Positions 1,464 to 17,976 are shown, counted from the first letter of the stretch. The stretch is 64,000 bases of DNA from Minisyncoccota bacterium (GCA_035546615.1 DASZWM010000002.1:61661-125660), one strand, 5' to 3'. Notes: generated by a model not told the origin, from the sequence alone. A program made the numbers and translations.

Positions 1464-2324
1464 CTATGTCCGTACTATCTTGCCAAGACGCTCTTCTACG
1501 AGCCCGCGGATCTGCAGCGATGAAAGCGCGATGTTCGCTTCCTGAGCGGAAAGCCCCGCGCGCTCAATAAGCTCGTCTTTTTCGAGTGCTTCGGCCAATG
1601 CCTCGAGTATTTTCGCTTCGGCAGGCGTCAGATCGGACGGGAAGGAGGCTTCCGCAGCATCTTCGACTTTCAGTCCGAGCGCTTCAAGAATATCTTCGCT
1701 GTTGCGAACGAGCGTTGCGCCTTCGCGAATCAGCCGGTTGACGCCCGCGCCGCTCTCGCGCCCCAGCTCGTGCGGCACGGCGAGCACTTCGCGGTTGTAG
1801 TCAAGCGCGAGCCGCGCGGTAATAAGCGTGCCGGACTTTTCTCCCGCTTCTATTATGAGCGTGGCAAGCGCCATGCCGGCCCCGATGCGGTTTCGCTTGG
1901 CGAAATCGAACAGCTGGGGCCGGTAGGGGCCGGGATTCTCGCTTACGAGCGCGCCGCCCTTCTCAAGTATCCGCTGCGCCAGCCCGCGGTTGCTTGCGGG
2001 ATATATAGAAGAGTCATCGCATGAGGAGGGGAGCACCGCTACGGTTGCCAGCCCGGCATCGAGCGCCGCCTTGTGCGCTTCGGCGTCTATGCCTAAAGCG
2101 AGGCCCGAGACTATCGCGACCGGATACCGCGCTAGCCCCGCGATAAGCGCTTGGCACATACGCCTTCCATATATAGACGTAGCGCGCGAGCCCACGACGC
2201 ACAGGAGCTTGTACTCGGGCGGGGGAAGTTCGCCGCGTAGGTACAGCATTTTCGGCTTGTCCGGAATTTCCCTCAAAAGGTCGGAAAATCCGTCAGGCGG
2301 CAGTTGTCGGATAGGGAAAGCCAT
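1464..2324 (-). CDS. dprA: DNA-processing protein DprA (Smf)
   Basis: 286 aa; Rossmann-like DprA core (VVGSRATSIYG..., GIDAEAHKAAL, SGTLITARLAL) and C-terminal winged helix. Confidence 0.9.
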   Translation of the reverse strand: MAFPIRQLPPDGFSDLLREIPDKPKMLYLRGELPPPEYKLLCVVGSRATSIYGRRMCQALIAGLARYPVAIVSGLALGIDAEAHKAALDAGLATVAVLPSSCDDSSIYPASNRGLAQRILEKGGALVSENPGPYRPQLFDFAKRNRIGAGMALATLIIEAGEKSGTLITARLALDYNREVLAVPHELGRESGAGVNRLIREGATLVRNSEDILEALGLKVEDAAEASFPSDLTPAEAKILEALAEALEKDELIERAGLSAQEANIALSSLQIRGLVEERLGKIVRT

Positions 2325-2349
2325 TGTATTCTATGGATATTCTGAACAT

Positions 2350-3621
2350 ATGTTAGATATCACGTTCATCCGCGAGAATCTAGAGCTCGTGAAGGCCGGC
2401 GCCAAGAAGAAGCATATCGAGGTCGACCTCGACCGGCTCATGTCCGTGGACGAAAAGCGCCGCGCGCTCCTGGTGGAGATAGAGACCATGCGCGCCAAGC
2501 AGAACGAGGTGTCCGACATGGTGGTCAAGGCGAGCCCCGAGGAAAAAGAAAAGGCTATCGGCGAAATGCGGGTGCTCAAGGAGACGCTTCAGGGCAAAGA
2601 GAAGGAAATGGAGGAGGTGATGCATGAATGGCAGCTCCTTATGGTGGCGGTGCCGAACATTCCGGATTTGTCAGTGCCCGACGGCGACTCCGACGCGGAC
2701 AATAAAGAGGTGAAGGTGTGGGGCGGAAAGCCGCAGTTCGCTTTTACCCCGAAGAGCCACGTCGAATTGATGCAGGACCTCGAGATGGCGGACTTCGAGC
2801 GCGGCACCAAGGTCGCCGGATTCCGCGGCTACTTCCTCAAGGGCGACGGGGCGCTCTTATCTTTCGCTATCTGGCGCTACGCGCAGGATTTTTTCCTGAA
2901 AAAGGATTTTACGCCGATGATAGTGCCGAGTTTGGTAAAGCGCGTCGCATTTTTGGGCAGCGGGTACCTGCCCCAGGGCGAGGACGACCTGTATAAGACG
3001 CAGGACGGCGATTTTTTGGCCGGCACCGCGGAAGTGGCGACGATGGGGTACTACATGAACGAAGTATTGCCGAAAGAAAAACTGCCGATGAAATTCCTTT
3101 CCTTCTCGCCGTGCTTCAGGCGCGAGGCGGGCGCGCACGGCAAGGACGTCAAAGGCCTTATCCGGGTACACGAATTCTTCAAATGGGAGCAGGTCATCGT
3201 GTGCGAGGGCACGCATGAGGAGTCGGTCAAATGGCACGAATGGGTGAATCGCAACACGGAAGAGTTCATCGAGTCGCTTGAGATCCCGTACCACACGGTG
3301 CTCAACTGTGGCGGTGACCTCGGGCTGGGCCAGGTAAAAAAGTATGACATCGAGCTGTGGGTGCCGGGCGAGAATACGTATCGCGAGATAAGCTCGGCCT
3401 CGTACTTCCATGACTTCCAGACCCGCCGTCTTAACATCCGCTATCGCGACGAGAACGGAAAGATGCAGTACTCGCATTCGCTTAATTCCACCGCCATTCC
3501 GACTCCGCGTATCCTCGTGTCTTTGATAGAGAATTACCAGCAGGAAGACGGCTCCATCCTCATCCCGAAAGCCCTGCAGCAGTACATGGGCAAGGAAAAA
3601 ATAGAAAAAGCGAAAGCGTAA
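2350..3621 (+). CDS. serS: seryl-tRNA synthetase
   Basis: Track ORF 1990..3621 has an upstream extension overlapping dprA; true start ATG 2350 (MLDITFIRENLELV...); N-terminal coiled coil plus class II aaRS motifs. Confidence 0.9.
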   Translation: MLDITFIRENLELVKAGAKKKHIEVDLDRLMSVDEKRRALLVEIETMRAKQNEVSDMVVKASPEEKEKAIGEMRVLKETLQGKEKEMEEVMHEWQLLMVAVPNIPDLSVPDGDSDADNKEVKVWGGKPQFAFTPKSHVELMQDLEMADFERGTKVAGFRGYFLKGDGALLSFAIWRYAQDFFLKKDFTPMIVPSLVKRVAFLGSGYLPQGEDDLYKTQDGDFLAGTAEVATMGYYMNEVLPKEKLPMKFLSFSPCFRREAGAHGKDVKGLIRVHEFFKWEQVIVCEGTHEESVKWHEWVNRNTEEFIESLEIPYHTVLNCGGDLGLGQVKKYDIELWVPGENTYREISSASYFHDFQTRRLNIRYRDENGKMQYSHSLNSTAIPTPRILVSLIENYQQEDGSILIPKALQQYMGKEKIEKAKA

Positions 3622-9230: not shown

Positions 9231-9303
9231 TGCCCGATCGTCTAATGGTAGGACAGAGGCCTTTGAAGCCTTTAATTGGGGTTCGAATCCCTGTCGGGCA
9301 GCA
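9231..9303 (+). tRNA. tRNA-Gln (anticodon UUG)
   Basis: Cloverleaf by hand: U1:A72 acceptor, anticodon loop cuUUGaa, T-loop UUCGAAU; CCA not encoded. Confidence 0.75.
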
Positions 9304-9525
9304 AATGTAGCGAAGCGTAATTTGCGCCCGAAGGAAGCAATGGGATTGCTTCCGGCAGGGATTCGAAAGCCGGAGCGGGACCCGCATCAGCAGATGCGGG
9401 AGCGAGGCAGGGTCGTGCGGCTAAAGTTGCGACGGCAACTTTAGAACGCCTGACCGAATCCCTAAGAAGTTTCTAGTTTTCTCTGTCTCTAGGCAGAATC
9501 ACTTTTTGATGGTAAATCTGTCCTG

Positions 9526-11199
9526 ATGCCGTATTCGACTGATATGTCAGTGTATTTAGATTTGGGCGGCGCTTTAGCTGCTTTTGGCCTTTTATTTACT
9601 GTTTACCAACTTCGGCGACCAAGGTGGGAGGTAATTTTGCGAATTAGAAATAATTGGCAAAGTGATATTTTCTGGATATTAGGTTTTATAGGTTTGTTTT
9701 ATGCCCTAGTTGGCGTGCTTGTATCTGAACTCCCAATTAATTCTTTCAACTTTCCGTTTAATACCCCATTACTTTACGAGGTGGCAGCGTACCTATCGTT
9801 TGTAGCTTCACCTCTGTCATTAATATATTTTGCGACCAATGACAAAAAGTTATTTAACGCAAAAACTGCAGAAACTTTCTACGAAGTAATCTTGCAAGAA
9901 ATTTCTAAATCTAGTGATGTAAACCTAGATGCGGCATTGGAAATAGTCTTGAGAAACTTTAATGAAATTTGTGATGCAACTCTTCAAAATACAGATAAAG
10001 ATTTGCGCTCATACGCAAGGTCAATTTTAGACGTTGTACTAAGTGACGAGTCTGTAGTAAAAGTGCTCACTACCAAGAGGCTTGATGCTTTGCAATATAT
10101 CTTTTATTTAATAAAGGAAAAGAATATCACTCGTGCTCATTCGGGGATAGGTATACCGAGAATTGTAAATAATCTTTTCTTTGACGAAAATTCCTTCCTC
10201 TATAAACAACTCGATAGAAAAGGGTTGGCACTTTCATCAAATATATACACGAGCATTTTTGAATCTCCAGTTATACTCACCAACTTTGATCTGTTTGGGT
10301 ACCCGACTATCGGTTATGGAATGAGTAGAGATACTGGCAATGCTGGTATAAGAGTATTTATCAAAGCCTTATCTCTAAGCATTGAAACTTACTTTAAAAC
10401 AGGGAGCGTGCCTCCGAGGCACATTAATAATGGGTTGTCTTACTTAAGCAATATATTTGGAGGGTTGTGTGCAAAAATTGCCATCAAAGAAAATAAAGGT
10501 GTTGATACTAAATCTAGTTTAGAAGATGAGTGGTGGGGCTTACATCAAATAGCCTCCTTTTTAGGACATGATTATATTTTTCTTGCCTATGAAGAAAAAC
10601 TAAATCAGCAAGTTCTGGAAAACGAAAAAACTGCCCATGAGGCTCGATTTGGCTCAAATGCAACTATAAATGAGGGTATTGCAGCTGTTATCTATAAAGC
10701 TTTTGAGCAGCTTTCACAAATTAAAAAAACCACAGACATATATCATACAGTTCTGGAGCTCTTGCATGGAATGATGAATGAGCCTACCTACAAGGAAGGT
10801 TATAGACCGCCTTTTGAAAAGAGACTCTGGCAACAAATCGGTGCAAATGTTGCTAAACGTTATTATCCTGCCGTCGTTAGAACGTATTTAACCTTTGTTG
10901 GGTTCTGTCTTGGCGCAGATGCAAACCAACGACAAGGTTGGATTGGCGAACAAGCGGAACGTATGAGACGACTTTTGTATATTGACCTTAAGCCTTTATT
11001 TGATAAGAATGAAAAAATGATAAATAAGGAATTTATGAAAGACGTTTTGCTCCCAGATTCCATGTCCTATAAAGATGGTAAATTTACTTATACCTCTGGA
11101 TTCGGAGAAGGTACAACCACTGAAGTAGCACCACCCCCTGAGGGTGCGACATCAGGTTTGGAAGGAATAGATTTAGAGAGTATGCCTCACTTCGTCTAG
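9526..11199 (+). CDS. hypothetical membrane protein (3 N-terminal TM helices + ~450-aa soluble domain); AT-rich
   Basis: 557 aa ORF, GC far below flanks, no motif recognised. Confidence 0.6.
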   Translation: MPYSTDMSVYLDLGGALAAFGLLFTVYQLRRPRWEVILRIRNNWQSDIFWILGFIGLFYALVGVLVSELPINSFNFPFNTPLLYEVAAYLSFVASPLSLIYFATNDKKLFNAKTAETFYEVILQEISKSSDVNLDAALEIVLRNFNEICDATLQNTDKDLRSYARSILDVVLSDESVVKVLTTKRLDALQYIFYLIKEKNITRAHSGIGIPRIVNNLFFDENSFLYKQLDRKGLALSSNIYTSIFESPVILTNFDLFGYPTIGYGMSRDTGNAGIRVFIKALSLSIETYFKTGSVPPRHINNGLSYLSNIFGGLCAKIAIKENKGVDTKSSLEDEWWGLHQIASFLGHDYIFLAYEEKLNQQVLENEKTAHEARFGSNATINEGIAAVIYKAFEQLSQIKKTTDIYHTVLELLHGMMNEPTYKEGYRPPFEKRLWQQIGANVAKRYYPAVVRTYLTFVGFCLGADANQRQGWIGEQAERMRRLLYIDLKPLFDKNEKMINKEFMKDVLLPDSMSYKDGKFTYTSGFGEGTTTEVAPPPEGATSGLEGIDLESMPHFV

Positions 11200-11201
11200 A
11201 T

Positions 11202-11759
11202 ATGAATCCAAACATTTGGTTTTACACTTTTAGTACAGCAGCCCAAGTAATGGCGGCTTTGGCCGGTTTATTTGCAGTATTTGTTGTATATAAGATTCAA
11301 GATTTTAGTCAGCTTATAAAAGACGCCCGCTCTAGTCTGTCCCGGTTGATTCCATACAATTCAGCGAATACGGGCGGAGATACAATCTCTAAGCAGGAAG
11401 TATTAGATATGACTGATAGAGAATTGGTTACTACGCTTGCCGAGTTGTTAGTACTTGAGACATCTCAGAATGGAGCGTTCTTTAGCGGACATTCAGAAAC
11501 TATAGATGGCACAACGATAGCTGTAAACTCGAATACCTACGACTATTTCGCAGCCCTTGTTGATAAAAAGGAAAGAATACTAAAACGTCTGATTTTTGTC
11601 TTGGGTTTAAGTTTAGGAACTATTTGTGTTTGTCTAGTATCATTGGTGCTAATTGACGTGTTATCAAAGTTTGAGTGGTTTATTTGGATGTGTTTGGCTT
11701 TATTTATATACACCCTTTGGACAATCGGAATGGATATTTACAAGATAACCCTAGAGTAA
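11202..11759 (+). CDS. hypothetical membrane protein (1 N-terminal + 2 C-terminal TM helices)
   Basis: 185 aa; 2-bp gap after the upstream gene; AT-rich. Confidence 0.55.
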   Translation: MNPNIWFYTFSTAAQVMAALAGLFAVFVVYKIQDFSQLIKDARSSLSRLIPYNSANTGGDTISKQEVLDMTDRELVTTLAELLVLETSQNGAFFSGHSETIDGTTIAVNSNTYDYFAALVDKKERILKRLIFVLGLSLGTICVCLVSLVLIDVLSKFEWFIWMCLALFIYTLWTIGMDIYKITLE

Positions 11760-11768
11760 TCTTTCTCT

Positions 11769-12092
11769 ATGAAAGGAATAATTATCGAAAATAGTCTCAA
11801 AGACAAAAGTATTATCACCGAAGCTGAAATTATTCGAACTTGGGAAGATGGAAGTTGGAAGTTGCGGGAGGTAAAAGTTTCAACAGAATGGGCTGAAAAA
11901 TTTGGAGGATACTTAAATGATGGACCCTGGTATGTTCACTTTTGGGAATCCGACAGCGACGATGTACTAGTAGTATTTAAAGACAAAAGCTTCTGGATCA
12001 AACATTCGGACAAGAATACTTGGCAAGATGCTATTGCTCATGGAAAGTCGTTACATATACCCGTGGAGCAATTAGACTTTCCTATTGATTGA
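11769..12092 (+). CDS. hypothetical small acidic cytoplasmic protein
   Basis: 107 aa; 9-bp gap after the upstream gene; AT-rich. Confidence 0.5.
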   Translation: MKGIIIENSLKDKSIITEAEIIRTWEDGSWKLREVKVSTEWAEKFGGYLNDGPWYVHFWESDSDDVLVVFKDKSFWIKHSDKNTWQDAIAHGKSLHIPVEQLDFPID

Positions 12093-12130
12093 GATTTCGA
12101 TTTCTCCCTTTTATATTATATAATCAAGAT

Positions 12131-12514
12131 ATGAAGTATTTGCTAATCACGGCTTTATTTTTGGTTGTCTTTGTGTTTGCTACTCCAGCAAAGGCCGCAC
12201 CATTAACCCAATCCCAAGTAAATGCAATAATTACTATTATGCAGTCTTTCGGTGTAGATAGTGCTACGATTTTAAATATCAAAACAACACTCTCTAATTC
12301 GACTTCCGCTAAGGTAGAATCCGTCGTCAAAACTACTTTTAAAGGAGTTCCTACCTACGCACAAGTGAAAAGAGAGTTAGCAAAATCACGCAATAAGGAG
12401 GTGACTTATATGGAGAATGGATGTGTATACTCAATAAACCATTTAGTGAGTGAACATATTTTCAAAACACGCGATATGAGTATTCGCGATCTTGCATCTG
12501 GAGCAAGTTGTTAG
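12131..12514 (+). CDS. hypothetical secreted protein (signal peptide MKYLLITALFLVVFVFATPAKA)
   Basis: Track ORF starts at TTG 12089 overlapping the previous stop; ATG 12131 gives a classical signal peptide; AT-rich. Confidence 0.5.
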   Translation: MKYLLITALFLVVFVFATPAKAAPLTQSQVNAIITIMQSFGVDSATILNIKTTLSNSTSAKVESVVKTTFKGVPTYAQVKRELAKSRNKEVTYMENGCVYSINHLVSEHIFKTRDMSIRDLASGASC

Positions 12515-12557
12515 TGCTCCTTGGTGTATAAAGTTTAAAAATATAGTTAATCTTCTC

Positions 12558-13040
12558 TTACCCCCGTCGCGCCGCATCAATAGCGGCAACGTCGAGCTTT
12601 TTCATCGTCATCATCGCGTCAAACGCGCGTTTTGCCTCATCGCCGCCCTTGGCAAGTGCTTCGGTCAGCGTGCGCGGCGTTATTTGCCACGATACTCCCC
12701 AGCGGTCCTTGCACCAGCCGCACTCGCTCTCCTGGCCGCCGTTTCCGACGATGGCATTCCAGTAGCGGTCCGTCTCTTCCTGATCGTCCGTCGCTATCTG
12801 GAAGGAAAACGCCTCGCTTTGCTTGAAATACGAGCCGCCGTTAATGCCCATGCAAGGAATCCCGCAGACCGTGAACTCTACCGAGAGCACGTCGCCTTTC
12901 TTGCCCGACGGGAAATCGGCAGGCGCATGGAAGACGCCCGTTACCTTGCTGTCGGGGAACGTAGCGGCATAGAAATTCGCCGCCCCTTCCGCATCCTTAT
13001 CAAACCAGAGGCAAATAGTGTTTTTTGGTATCATATACAT
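12558..13040 (-). CDS. VOC family protein (PhnB-like / 3-demethylubiquinone-9 3-methyltransferase-domain protein)
   Basis: 160 aa; CLWFDKDAEGAANFY...CGWCKDRWGVSWQI matches the PhnB-like family. Confidence 0.75.
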   Translation of the reverse strand: MYMIPKNTICLWFDKDAEGAANFYAATFPDSKVTGVFHAPADFPSGKKGDVLSVEFTVCGIPCMGINGGSYFKQSEAFSFQIATDDQEETDRYWNAIVGNGGQESECGWCKDRWGVSWQITPRTLTEALAKGGDEAKRAFDAMMTMKKLDVAAIDAARRG

Positions 13041-14657: not shown

Positions 14658-15164
14658 TTACTTAGCCAGTTGTTTGTATTCCCGAAAGAGCAGTGTACAC
14701 GCCGCGGCCACGCCCGCAAAAATAGCCGCCGTGCCGGTTGCATACAGCGTGCCGGCTACTTGCGGCGTCCAGTACAAAAAGTTAGTCGTGCTCAGCAGGT
14801 AGTGCCAGTCGTGCATCACGCCATCGCCGCCCAGAAGCGGCAGCTGCATGGCAAGGGCATCGCCGGCGTATATGGAGACGTTCACCAAGCTTTGACCCGC
14901 CCACATGAGGCACACGGCCGCGGAGAGCTTTTGGCCGGTGTAGAAAAAATATCCGGCTAGGAACGCGGGGAGGGCAACCTGAAAACCGGAACCCATCAGG
15001 ACATGGATGAACTGCCCGAAGAATATGAATATAGCGTGGCCGGCCTCGTGGAAGATAAGGTTGGCGCCGTCGATAAAGTGCCATTGCGCGGGCGTTGCGG
15101 CGCAGCGCAGAAAATATATGCTTGCGAGCGCGACTCCGGCCGCCCGGGCGTACCAGGAATTCAT
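14658..15164 (-). CDS. membrane protein with HEXXH motif (putative intramembrane zinc metalloprotease-like)
   Basis: 168 aa, about 5 TM helices, FHEAGHAIF. Confidence 0.5.
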   Translation of the reverse strand: MNSWYARAAGVALASIYFLRCAATPAQWHFIDGANLIFHEAGHAIFIFFGQFIHVLMGSGFQVALPAFLAGYFFYTGQKLSAAVCLMWAGQSLVNVSIYAGDALAMQLPLLGGDGVMHDWHYLLSTTNFLYWTPQVAGTLYATGTAAIFAGVAAACTLLFREYKQLAK

Positions 15165-17100: not shown

Positions 17101-17976
17101 GTGAAGCATCTTCTTTATATAGGAATATGCGCCGCGGCCTTCTTCGCCTTTTTTCCTCAGGCCTCTTTTGCCGCCGCAGTTACGGCTCCTTCAATACTCG
17201 TTTCTTCAAGCACTCCGCTTCAGGGCGAGCCGGTGCTCGTGACGTTTGAGGGCGTCACCGCCACATCTTCCATACAAAGCATTTCGTATAACGGCGGCAA
17301 GCCGGGCACCTTCTTATACGCGGGCAAGGTCCATGCGCTTTTGGCTGTCGACCTGCATCAGAAGCCGGGGCCGTATGCTGTCTCGGCGCTTCTGGCCACG
17401 GGCAAGAAGCTCGAAAAGATTATTACGGTCATAGAGCGGCCGCAGGTAAAAGCCCCGCTGGGCATTCCGGAAAAGCTCGGCGGAAATACGGCGGCGAGCC
17501 AGGCGACGCTGGTATCCACGCTTGCGAGCGAGAATGCGAGCCTTGCGAACATTTGGACCGGCACGAAGGCGTTCTGGTCGCAGAACTTCCAGTGGCCGCT
17601 TAAAAGTATTACCGTGACCGACCCGTACGGCTACTCGCGGGAAACCGGCGCGTATTCGATCGCCCATAAGGGCACCGACCTTCGCGCGGCGGAAGGCACG
17701 CCCGTTGCGGCGATAAACCGCGGGGTAGTGCGCGTTGTGCACGAGTATCGCGACTACGGAAAGACGATAGTGGTCGACCACGGGCTCGGGCTGATGTCCT
17801 TTTACATGCATCTCTCAAAAATAAATGTCGTCGCGGGCCAGCTGGTGCTCCCGGGGCAGATAATGGGCTTGAGCGGCCATACCGGCTATGCCGACCAGCC
17901 GCACCTTCATCTCACCATCCGAATTAACGGAATCTCCATAGACCCGGTGCTGTTCTTCAAGCTCTTTAATTTATAG
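17101..17976 (+). CDS. M23 family metallopeptidase (LytM-like), secreted
   Basis: GTG start; signal peptide; HKGTDL...DHGLGLMSFYMHL...SGHTGYADQPHLH catalytic motifs. Confidence 0.85.
   Translation: MKHLLYIGICAAAFFAFFPQASFAAAVTAPSILVSSSTPLQGEPVLVTFEGVTATSSIQSISYNGGKPGTFLYAGKVHALLAVDLHQKPGPYAVSALLATGKKLEKIITVIERPQVKAPLGIPEKLGGNTAASQATLVSTLASENASLANIWTGTKAFWSQNFQWPLKSITVTDPYGYSRETGAYSIAHKGTDLRAAEGTPVAAINRGVVRVVHEYRDYGKTIVVDHGLGLMSFYMHLSKINVVAGQLVLPGQIMGLSGHTGYADQPHLHLTIRINGISIDPVLFFKLFNL

Follow-up and report, generated by a model that had tools for sequence, protein, structure and literature searches.

What is the short AT-rich block that interrupts an otherwise GC-rich chromosome directly behind a tRNA-Gln gene, and do the four genes that it carries belong together? 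The block lies in the 64-kb stretch of DNA that was analysed as a whole (referred to as the window), and its genes are called G1 to G4 (Table 1). The initial annotation had recognised no family in any of the four, and searches with Pfam, NCBIfam, PHROGs, and PADLOC likewise returned nothing.

Table 1. The acquired block, its genes and its borders, in positions of the window.
Feature	Position	Strand	Basis or remark
tRNA-Gln(UUG), left anchor	9231-9302	+	ARAGORN; Rfam RF00005, 60.7 bits
Spacer, host-like GC, strongly structured	9303-9462	+	RNA MFE; inverted T-arm copy
Compositional island	9462-12560	none	GC 0.375; limits from cumulative GC walk
G1, 557 aa	9526-11199	+	ORF; NCBI start at Met7 (9544)
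G2, 185 aa, membrane	11202-11759	+	One N-terminal and two C-terminal TM helices (hydropathy)
G3, 107 aa, acidic (pI 5.0), soluble alpha/beta, motif DGPWYxHFW	11769-12092	+	
G4, 127 aa, basic (pI 9.5), signal peptide MKYLLITALFLVVFVFATPAKA followed by AP	12131-12514	+	ORF
VOC-family gene (PF06983), resident, right border	12558-13040	-	Pfam 3.4e-48; host-like GC

A foreign block between tRNA-Gln and a VOC-family gene

The composition of the block is uniform and foreign; it deviates from that of the host in GC content, tetranucleotide usage, and GC3. Its GC content of 37.5% compares with 58.3 ± 1.9% in all other 3-kb segments of the 64-kb stretch (z = -10.7). When 300-bp segments were used, values of 0.33-0.43 were obtained across positions of about 9450-12500, and nowhere in the rest of the window does the GC content fall below 0.49 (2-kb segments). 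The tetranucleotide L1 distance amounts to 0.74 for the island compared to 0.26 ± 0.03 elsewhere, where the maximum is 0.37. GC3 ranges from 0.32 to 0.37 in G1-G4 vs. 0.72 in dnaX and 0.64 in the next gene, and the overall GC content is virtually the same in each of the four genes (37.8-38.0%). The sharp drop in GC over the four genes, which had been described before, is thus supported by the GC segments, the cumulative GC walk, and the tetranucleotide distance. The flanks, however, were said to exceed 60% GC, while 50-59% was measured for the immediate flanks.

The island is about 3.1 kb long, and its compositional border is located 160 bp past the tRNA gene. The ATG of G1 (9526) follows 223 bp past tRNA-Gln, in good agreement with the approximately 220 bp given earlier. 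RNA transcribed from the spacer next to the tRNA has a predicted minimum free energy of -78.2 kcal/mol (z = -6.0), with none of 200 shuffled sequences folding equally well, and the spacer contains an inverted repeat (I4, positions 9352-9367) of 16 nt that is 94% complementary to the T-arm of the tRNA. A reading of this GC-rich spacer as a degenerate tRNA or another known RNA found no support, as there was no Rfam match up to E = 1. An alignment of the tRNA-to-cargo spacers across loci yielded a string common to only two of them (L012 and L015, see below). On the right, the island is limited by the stop codon of the VOC gene (PF06983), whose position on the opposite strand and high GC content are as the initial annotation had described them; a DAGK_prokar gene comes next. 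Around the island, the gene order is dnaX, pgl, ArsR, tRNA-Gln, VOC, and dgkA. A search for the identical VOC protein, by which an empty site was sought, found no record. Att-type direct repeats were not detected in the window and the 3′ end of the tRNA is not duplicated at the right border, a test that is weak for serine recombinases because of their short cores.

The foreign composition and the location directly downstream of a tRNA gene uphold the earlier view of an acquired island. The block is a genuine island that was acquired by horizontal transfer and lies at a tRNA gene.

The tRNA-Gln site as a probable integration hot spot

The G1, G2, and G3 families each recur immediately beside tRNA-Gln in other genomes. 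This tRNA is found 46 bp before a G1 homologue in L012 and 187 bp before another one in L015, it adjoins a G2 homologue in L097/L098 (48 bp ahead of it in L098), and it adjoins G3 homologues in L101 and L102/L103 (75-223 bp in L101 and L102). For G1, the association extends to co-oriented tRNAs in general, with 11 of them in 114 kb upstream of the homologues, compared to 9 in the 248 kb examined at a greater distance (Poisson P = 0.004). Six non-redundant loci, of which five have a G1 homologue and one a G2 homologue, are laid out as a tRNA, a cargo gene, and a convergent large serine recombinase of about 440 aa, and in five of these six the recombinase is followed by restriction-modification (R-M) genes. 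At tRNA-Gln itself, the order of tRNA, cargo, recombinase, and R-M is seen in L012, L015, and L098; in the latter, the G2 homologue is placed between the tRNA and the convergent recombinase, with HsdM next. The recombinases of the homologous islands comprise 433-453 aa with Resolvase, Recombinase, and Zn_ribbon_recom domains. A test for co-evolution of G1 and the adjacent recombinase was negative, the identities of cargo and recombinase being uncorrelated (r = -0.09), so that cargo is swapped between elements.

L012 has dnaX and the upstream gene in common with the window. Its orthologous dnaX-tRNA-Gln site holds a different island, which consists of a G1 homologue, a recombinase, and R-M genes. 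In the window, neither an integrase or recombinase that would characterize an integrative element nor an R-M gene was found within the 64 kb, and a comparison with 278 recombinase- or R-M-like neighbour proteins from the homologous islands gave no match. The statement that no integrase or transposase is present therefore holds for the window, but a large serine recombinase is encoded in homologous islands at this tRNA.

Genomic islands and horizontal gene transfer within the phylum are common in Patescibacteria (PMC12455944). We consider it probable, at roughly 60%, that the block is a recombinase-less array of cargo genes in a tRNA-Gln hot spot of high-GC Candidatus Paceibacterota, imported in one piece from a low-GC patescibacterial donor. 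The island might descend from an element of the tRNA-cargo-recombinase-R-M type that has lost its recombinase and R-M half. Since the window holds no recombinase, no R-M gene, and no att repeat, this descent from a serine-recombinase element is something that we can only infer. Alternatively, the island could have arrived through homologous recombination between conserved anchors.

The G1 family and its neighbourhoods

All TM helices of G1 are N-terminal (residues of about 13-28, 43-68, and 81-104, according to hydropathy and the AF2 model). In the model they are followed by an alpha-solenoid (115-493), a C-terminal beta-hairpin, and a conserved tail. TM1 is strongly conserved in the family, and Q28, W34, H348, E367, D487, and K489 are invariant residues. 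Based on the positive-inside rule and the RRPRW...RIR loop after TM1, the 450-aa alpha-solenoid is most likely cytoplasmic and the N-terminus outside. The family is conserved and centred on Patescibacteria. It comprises 293 clusters among 1.84 billion proteins and was found in 16 of 185,579 species genomes, which belong to several CPR lineages and to Eremiobacterota. Homologues from Saccharibacteria include those of L010 and L017. In high-GC hosts, the GC content of the gene is 0.10-0.23 below that of the genome. Searches of Pfam yielded no match and no effector-like domain, and neither did relatives of G1 occur in IMG/VR viral contigs, INPHARED phages, or a plasmid collection. Foldseek against BFVD gave nothing with E < 0.08, and the best hit of the G1, G2, and G3 profiles in the PDB had E = 0.14, with none being significant. 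Judged by sequence and model, G1 represents an undescribed family of membrane proteins with no known sequence or fold relative. Distant G1-like proteins (21-26% identity) are located after a CBASS pair and after a SIR2/DUF4917 gene.

The neighbourhoods of G1 homologues are rich in genes for restriction and recombination. Among 41 non-redundant loci, R-M genes are present within 5 kb in 20, a recombinase in 13, either of them in 27, and neither in 14. A Pfam census of the genes up to 4 kb from G1 is headed by Resolvase (11), N6_N4_Mtase (8), ResIII (7), EcoRI_methylase (5), and HNH (5), and also includes Hsd, GmrSD, D12, and Fic, compared with mainly MreB, ABC, RF-1, FtsX, and HSP70 at 6-10 kb. 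The PADLOC annotation of the neighbourhoods is in accordance with this census. In many cases, a G1 homologue closes a restriction locus of type I, II, III, or IV or is embedded within it, and a co-directional and tightly coupled gene is found upstream of G1 in 18 of 51 loci, often a restriction subunit. G1 is the only one of the four families whose members reside preferentially beside defence genes, as counted over these loci and not genome-wide. The defence module proposed by the initial annotation can hence be retained in part, namely in the association of G1 with defence islands and mobile elements elsewhere, but not for the four genes as one module. Still, the linkage of G1 to R-M genes may merely reflect shared residence in islands.

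With these neighbourhoods, G1 is a candidate for a second-line defence or exclusion factor that acts as a single gene. Its solenoid might bind a protein or nucleoprotein derived from an invader, and the conserved TM segment might transmit the signal to the membrane, leading either to permeabilisation as in abortive infection or to a block of DNA entry. This mechanism is solely an inference; neither a catalytic motif nor a fold relative of G1 was recognised. A more far-reaching reading, which we put forward as a tentative possibility, is that the family, centred on Patescibacteria, constitutes a novel type of immunity or exclusion protein that works as a single gene, serving as a back-up layer to R-M and travelling as swappable cargo of undescribed tRNA-targeting serine-recombinase islands; the window would then contain a stranded copy that is intact and probably expressed. 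Should G1 turn out to give protection, it would add a defence gene from a phylum that has yielded few. A small conserved family of membrane proteins linked to all types of R-M loci appears worth testing.

It is more doubtful whether G1 serves the mobile element itself, for example in entry or superinfection exclusion directed at related elements, in maintenance by addiction, or as an aid to DNA uptake or transfer. Such a role would be in line with the convergent serine recombinase that begins 15-35 bp after G1 in five non-redundant loci (others being located within a few kb), with the recombinase fragment of 134 aa that follows 12 bp after G1 in L009, and with L018, which resembles a minimal element made of tRNA-Ser, a G1 homologue, and a recombinase. 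In one locus, a tyrosine integrase is found directly upstream, and a membrane protein with a strongly conserved TM1 would suit such functions as well. However, about two thirds of the loci are devoid of a recombinase within 5 kb, coupling at 5-30 bp downstream of restriction genes is more frequent, cargo and recombinase do not co-evolve, and no ATPase, relaxase, or pilus domain was detected in G1.

One system or independent genes, and comparison with known systems

The alternative that all four genes form one co-functional operon, be it a defence or abortive-infection module, a toxin-immunity cassette, or a cell-surface cassette, has become unlikely. The genes are co-directional on the + strand, their equal GC content indicates that they arrived jointly, and their products have mixed predicted locations (membrane, cytoplasmic, and secreted). 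The topologies initially described for these products were confirmed by hydropathy and the AF2 model. As for the spacing, which had been given as -4 to +9 bp, gaps of 2 and 9 bp were indeed found, but the last one measures 38 bp and the TTG start at 12089 is not on record. The start on record for G4 is the ATG at 12131, where the signal peptide begins, in a 90% cluster with a single member. A sigma-70-like site (12089-12117) lies ahead of G4; the promoter scan performed no better than with shuffled sequence.

In contrast to what would be expected of one system, tblastn searches with G2, G3, and G4 against the 95 other G1 loci gave no match, so that none of these loci has a relative of any of the three beside G1, and the gene downstream of G1 homologues differs at almost every locus. 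No second locus was found in which any two of the four families are arranged as in the window, the exception being L037, where a distant G2-like protein (HMM E = 1e-6) is encoded directly upstream of a G1 homologue. Relatives of G2 and G3 stand alone elsewhere. The G2 family comprises 26 clusters with 28-89% identity and a nearly invariant N-terminal helix; its members occur without G1 or G3, and downstream of the relative with 89% identity lies a gene for 165 aa rather than 107 aa. G3 homologues are solitary in three unrelated contexts, and 36 members of the family had no match in Pfam. A homologous N-terminal TM module in G1 and G2, for which similar GLxFAV...Y[KQ][IL][QR] strings had been noticed, was rejected, as hhalign found no relationship between the two profiles (probability 0.8%). 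None of the proteins was recognised as a member of a toxin, nuclease, NTPase, or immunity family, and no toxin domain with an adjacent cognate immunity gene was found. The proteins did not match any known defence system either (PADLOC-DB v2.0.0, 0 families at E ≤ 1), and a prophage or phage remnant was not indicated, with nothing below E = 0.01 in PHROGs and no relatives in IMG/VR, INPHARED, or BFVD. A joint presence of the components in a constant order in unrelated genomes, as in conserved multi-gene systems, was thus not seen, and the operon-like single system is largely refuted.

According to these sequence comparisons, G1, G2, and G3 are separate conserved families of Patescibacteria that do not co-occur, and it appears likely that the four genes function independently. 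The spacing of 2 and 9 bp would nevertheless allow co-transcription of G1, G2, and G3, and a local functional coupling may exist. No relatives of G4 were found in 100 related loci, viral contigs, INPHARED phages, or the PDB; a single-sequence match to annexin in the PDB (E = 0.01) is weak and was judged to be due to chance. Only G1 has an informative context, while no functional lead is available for G2 (membrane), G3 (cytoplasmic), and G4 (secreted).

We regard it as very improbable that these are ordinary lineage-specific envelope or housekeeping genes of Paceibacterota which are AT-rich by coincidence, in the way that genes with high expression or for membrane proteins may be. The families are specific to Patescibacteria and well conserved, two of the three G3 contexts are housekeeping-like, and the G1 proteins of the window and L012 (50% identity) have diverged to a similar degree as the adjacent dnaX genes (46%). 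A GC gap of 20 points with a GC3 of 0.33 vs. 0.72 is, however, no expression effect, and G1 is present in just the 16 species representatives mentioned above, with a GC content below that of GC-rich hosts and a position adjacent to tRNAs and recombinases. A chimera of assembly or binning, in which low-GC DNA from a different organism became part of a high-GC contig, might be suspected from the abrupt switch in composition and from the source being a metagenome-assembled genome, yet it is next to impossible given that an independent Logan contig (L001, 3480 bp) matches positions 9247-12726 at 100% identity across both junctions, that these lie in intergenic DNA near a tRNA as expected of a real island, and that the tRNA-Gln-G1 arrangement recurs in other genomes.

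CPR bacteria (Patescibacteria) account for much of the diversity of bacteria, and to our knowledge their mobile elements have hardly been described. Most of them have no CRISPR; their protection from phages is believed to depend on R-M and on unknown mechanisms (PMC12455944). The recurrent architecture of tRNA, cargo, serine recombinase, and R-M, which is likewise worth testing, would carry such genes from one CPR lineage to another and as far as Eremiobacterota.

For G1, two groups of known proteins offer themselves for comparison. PrrC is embedded in EcoprrI and becomes active upon inhibition of restriction (PMC12707154). Genes of the PrrC/RloC type are linked to R-M operons, and G1 homologues often stand at the end of restriction loci or within them. 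Unlike PrrC and RloC, G1 resides in the membrane, contains neither an ATPase nor a HEPN nuclease domain, and is associated with R-M of all types instead of one; moreover, the G1 of the window has no R-M partner, and no sequence or fold similarity was found. Membrane proteins that act in abortive infection include RexB and the TM effectors of CBASS, Pycsar, and retron systems. G1 resembles them in its N-terminal TM helices, its predicted cytoplasmic domain, and its residence in defence islands, but differs in the 450-aa alpha-solenoid and in having no PADLOC match.

With regard to mobility, elements with large serine recombinases are represented by integrases of the phiC31 and Bxb1 type, the ccr genes of SCCmec, and the TnpX/TndX transposons. 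The homologous islands are similar in that they carry a recombinase of 433-453 aa at the cargo boundary, whereas the copy in the window is devoid of any recombinase. Large serine recombinases need no long direct repeats, and a window with no such repeats fits with this. At tRNA sites, integrases are usually of the tyrosine type, and the homologous islands differ from this in that their recombinases are mostly of the large serine type. We know of no description of serine recombinases that target tRNA genes with a fixed order of tRNA, one cargo gene, recombinase, and R-M.

The window itself contains only an immobilised cargo array with no assigned function, as is often the case for genomic islands. 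Known defence islands with a tRNA gene as anchor include 'hotspot 37' at leuX of E. coli (PMC12707154). In contrast to islands of the leuX type, the one described here has no integrase and no att repeat, is only 3.1 kb long, resides in a CPR host, and carries no cargo gene from a described family. As in these islands, a variable set of foreign genes follows the tRNA between conserved anchors, the content appears to vary at the orthologous site, judging from the window and L012, and R-M is a frequent cargo (PMC12707154).

Composition and borders of the island

The four + strand ORFs next to tRNA-Gln(UUG), here called G1 to G4, are located in a segment (approximately 9462-12560) with a GC content of 37.5% compared to a window average of 58%, corresponding to z = -10.7 against all other 3-kb windows (0.583 ± 0.019). 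In tetranucleotide usage, this island is 0.74 distant from the remaining window sequence vs. 0.26 ± 0.03 (maximum 0.37) for other segments, and the GC content at the third codon position is 0.32-0.37 in the four ORFs vs. 0.72 in the adjoining dnaX. The initial annotation had described a sharp GC drop beside tRNA-Gln(UUG), and both parts of this observation were confirmed; the immediate flanks, given there as above 60% GC, were measured at 50-59%. Since the GC contents of G1 to G4 are practically equal (0.378-0.380), the composition argues for a single import of the block from one donor. Both island junctions are real, as an independent Logan contig (L001) matches positions 9247-12726 at 100% identity. 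On the left side, the compositional border is found 160 bp past the tRNA gene, behind a strongly structured spacer of host GC content; on the right side, the resident VOC-family gene is followed by a DAGK_prokar gene. In the record of the Candidatus Paceibacterota MAG, the products of the four ORFs (VHD55_00715 to _00730) are annotated as hypothetical proteins.

The spacer (9303-9462) is predicted to fold with unusual stability (MFE -78.2 kcal/mol, z = -6.0), contains three strong hairpins and repeats 16 nt of the tRNA T-arm in inverted orientation (9352-9367 against 9282-9297). It had no match in Rfam. Possible identities are stacked terminators, a small RNA or the remnant of an att site. For G4, of the two starts originally proposed, TTG at 12089 and ATG at 12131, the latter is likeliest, being the recorded form and the point at which the signal peptide begins; instead of overlapping by 4 bp, G3 and G4 are thus separated by 38 bp. 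A sigma-70-like promoter match in the G3-G4 gap (12089-12117; TTGAGA, 17-nt spacer, TATATT; 10 of 12 positions) may permit separate transcription of G4.

Features of the island and layout of homologous loci (L numbers) fetched for comparison
Feature or locus	Position	Description
tRNA-Gln(UUG)	9231-9302	ARAGORN and Rfam
G1	9526-11199	557 aa
G2	11202-11759	185 aa
G3	11769-12092	107 aa
G4	12131-12514	127 aa
PF06983 (VOC) gene	12558-13040	resident; its stop codon is the right island border
L012		dnaX orthologue, tRNA-Gln(UUG), G1 homologue after 46 bp, convergent serine recombinase, ResIII helicase, two DNA methyltransferases, NOV_C protein
L015		tRNA-Gln(CUG), G1 homologue, L012-type recombinase (84% identical), D12 methyltransferase, HNH nuclease
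L098		tRNA-Gln(CUG), G2 homologue, recombinase of the same subfamily (57%), HsdM
L101		G3 homologue 75 bp from tRNA-Gln
L102/L103		G3 homologue 223 bp from tRNA-Gln; dnaX a few kb off

Protein families and their independent occurrence

In agreement with the initial annotation, which had recognized no family, G1 to G4 yielded no match in Pfam, NCBIfam, PHROGs or PADLOC. Despite this absence from family libraries, sequence searches indicate that G1, G2 and G3 are not orphans. Relatives of G1 with 48-65% identity fill more than 160 clusters, and an exhaustive profile search among 1.84 billion proteins retrieved 293 clusters (50% identity level); complete relatives are all 540-600 aa long, none with an extra fused domain. 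G3 is represented by at least 128 clusters, whose length is constant at 107-108 aa (mean column identity 66%), and G2 by 26, while G4, carrying a canonical signal peptide and otherwise nothing recognizable, is the sole member of its 90% cluster.

In the AlphaFold2 model of G1 (pLDDT 88.5, pTM 0.85), three N-terminal TM helices are followed by an alpha-solenoid (approximately 115-493) and a small beta-hairpin whose tail is conserved; across the protein, conservation is highest in TM1 and the C-terminal third. As the loop behind TM1 is strongly basic (RRPRWEVILRIR), we read the solenoid as probably cytoplasmic by the positive-inside rule. Neither a PDB profile search nor BFVD revealed structural relatives. 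G2 is a three-TM protein with a near-invariant N-terminal helix (NIWFYTFSTAAQVMAALxGLFAVFVVYKIQD; 11202-11300, residues 1-33), which suggests a specific intramembrane interaction; the remainder drifts to below 40% identity. G2 is not homologous to G1. The G3 model is a compact alpha/beta domain (pLDDT 96) with no neighbor in the PDB.

G1 occurs sporadically (16 of 185,579 species genomes), namely in Nomura-, Kaiser-, Campbell-, Magasanik- and Saccharibacteria, Paceibacterota and two Eremiobacterota, with a GC content 0.10-0.23 below that of every GC-rich host. The homologues in the two Candidatus Eremiobacterota MAGs (L020:10001-11614, L023:10001-10291; 43-49% identity; GC 0.55-0.575 vs. 0.60-0.68 for the host) apparently reflect transfer out of CPR.

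The proposal that the four genes form one operon-like system was not supported. Among 95 further G1-relative loci (16 of them taken from species-representative genomes, 73 from metagenomes and several through exact look-ups), tblastn found no match to G2, G3 or G4 in any, and the G2-family HMM gave one weak match, in L037, where it lies upstream of G1. Downstream of G1, nearly all loci have different genes. Conversely, relatives of G2 are found in the absence of G1 or G3 (the one with 89% identity is followed by a 165-aa gene), and G3 relatives occur alone in three unrelated neighborhoods. The four genes are therefore juxtaposed locally and do not make up a conserved unit.

A recurrent tRNA-side location

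Based on tRNA scans, Pfam assignments and synteny comparison, the recurring feature across relatives of G1, G2 and G3 is their location beside a tRNA. Besides tRNA-Gln, G1 homologues are preceded by tRNA-Ser (L016, L018, L047), tRNA-Arg (L003), tRNA-Glu (L011), tRNA-Leu (L044, 27 bp) and tRNA-Thr (L007, with a tyrosine integrase). Directly upstream of non-redundant G1 genes, 114 kb of sequence contain 11 tRNAs, all co-oriented with G1, vs. 9 in 248 kb of more distal sequence (P = 0.004). A common layout in Patescibacteria (L003, L012, L015, L016, L018, L098; e.g., L012:9659-15554) comprises a tRNA (Gln/Ser/Arg), one or few G1/G2-family cargo genes and a convergent large serine recombinase of approximately 440 aa; restriction-modification (R-M) genes point away from the recombinase, with L018 as an exception. 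We know of no description of this island class. Together with that of L014, these recombinases form one subfamily (52-84% identity). As their divergence is uncorrelated with that of the adjacent cargo (r = -0.09; in L012 and L015, recombinases are 84% but G1 genes only 53% identical), cargo is exchanged between elements.

VOC/glyoxalase-superfamily genes adjoin G1/G2 homologues in L036 (3518-4501), L049 (3-401), L017 and L099 (8550-8990) as in the window, and L099 shares with the window a 168-aa membrane gene (14658-15164 in the window), which in L099 is approximately 1 kb from the G2 homologue; these neighbors may mark a conserved variable region or be coincidental. In L005, ARAGORN reported a 'tRNA-Ser(ACT)' (1407-1496) overlapping the 3′ end of a 569-aa serine recombinase gene (1482-3191); at a distance of 16 kb (17532-17619) there is a normal tRNA-Ser(GCT). 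This pair may represent a duplicated tRNA fragment bounding a 16-kb element with a PrimPol gene and a G1 homologue.

Defence association and comparison with known systems

The sole functional lead for G1 is its genomic context. Of 41 non-redundant loci whose context covers 3 kb or more, an R-M gene was present within 5 kb of G1 in 20, a recombinase in 13 and either in 27. The 120 largest ORFs up to 4 kb from G1 were dominated by Resolvase/Recombinase (11), N6_N4_Mtase (8), ResIII (7), EcoRI_methylase (5) and HNH (5) as well as Hsd, Eco57I, GmrSD, D12 and Fic, whereas the 120 largest at 6-10 kb were mostly housekeeping; PADLOC results were consistent with this census. Tight coupling of G1 to a preceding co-directional gene (at most 45 bp) was seen in 18 of 51 loci; type III Res subunits, GmrSD-HNH enzymes and HsdS are frequent among these genes. 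Remote G1-like proteins of the same length (21-26% identity; L086:1407-6756, L094:2198-7023) are found directly behind a CBASS-like pair (patatin and SMODS/AGS_C, then a CHAP-domain gene) and behind a SIR2/DUF4917 gene. Among the genes 5-45 bp before G1 homologues in L025, L036, L091, L093 and L017 (131 bp in L072), several resemble by eye small PD-(D/E)XK proteins or type II restriction endonucleases, of a MutH/Sau3AI-like kind in L036 and a MvaI/BcnI-like kind in L072. Such surroundings are the 'guilt by association' pattern classically seen for defence genes. As they are also expected for any cargo of islands common to R-M systems, we estimate a chance of about one in three that G1 is a defence or exclusion protein.

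The window island fits the cargo side of such a tRNA island without the recombinase and R-M side, a state that could have arisen by loss of the recombinase or by entry of the block through homologous recombination between conserved anchors. The lack of att-like direct repeats and the distance of 160 bp from the tRNA to the compositional border bear on this question. Neither a recombinase nor att-like direct repeats were found at the island, two criteria of a complete integrative element; the terms degenerate island or cargo array describe it best. The island belongs to no described defence system, toxin-immunity cassette or prophage. The initial observation stands, and the interpretation given with it is supported in part. 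The 3-kb block itself is of less value than what it led to, namely a membrane-protein family, so far undescribed and structurally isolated, that is linked to every type of restriction system, and the recurrent serine-recombinase island architecture in CPR bacteria. Similar to the E. coli leuX hotspot (PMC12707154), the window locus behaves as a tRNA-anchored variable island or defence hot spot. Genomic islands are reported to be numerous in Patescibacteria and to be exchanged mostly within the phylum (PMC12455944), a pattern that the window locus fits.
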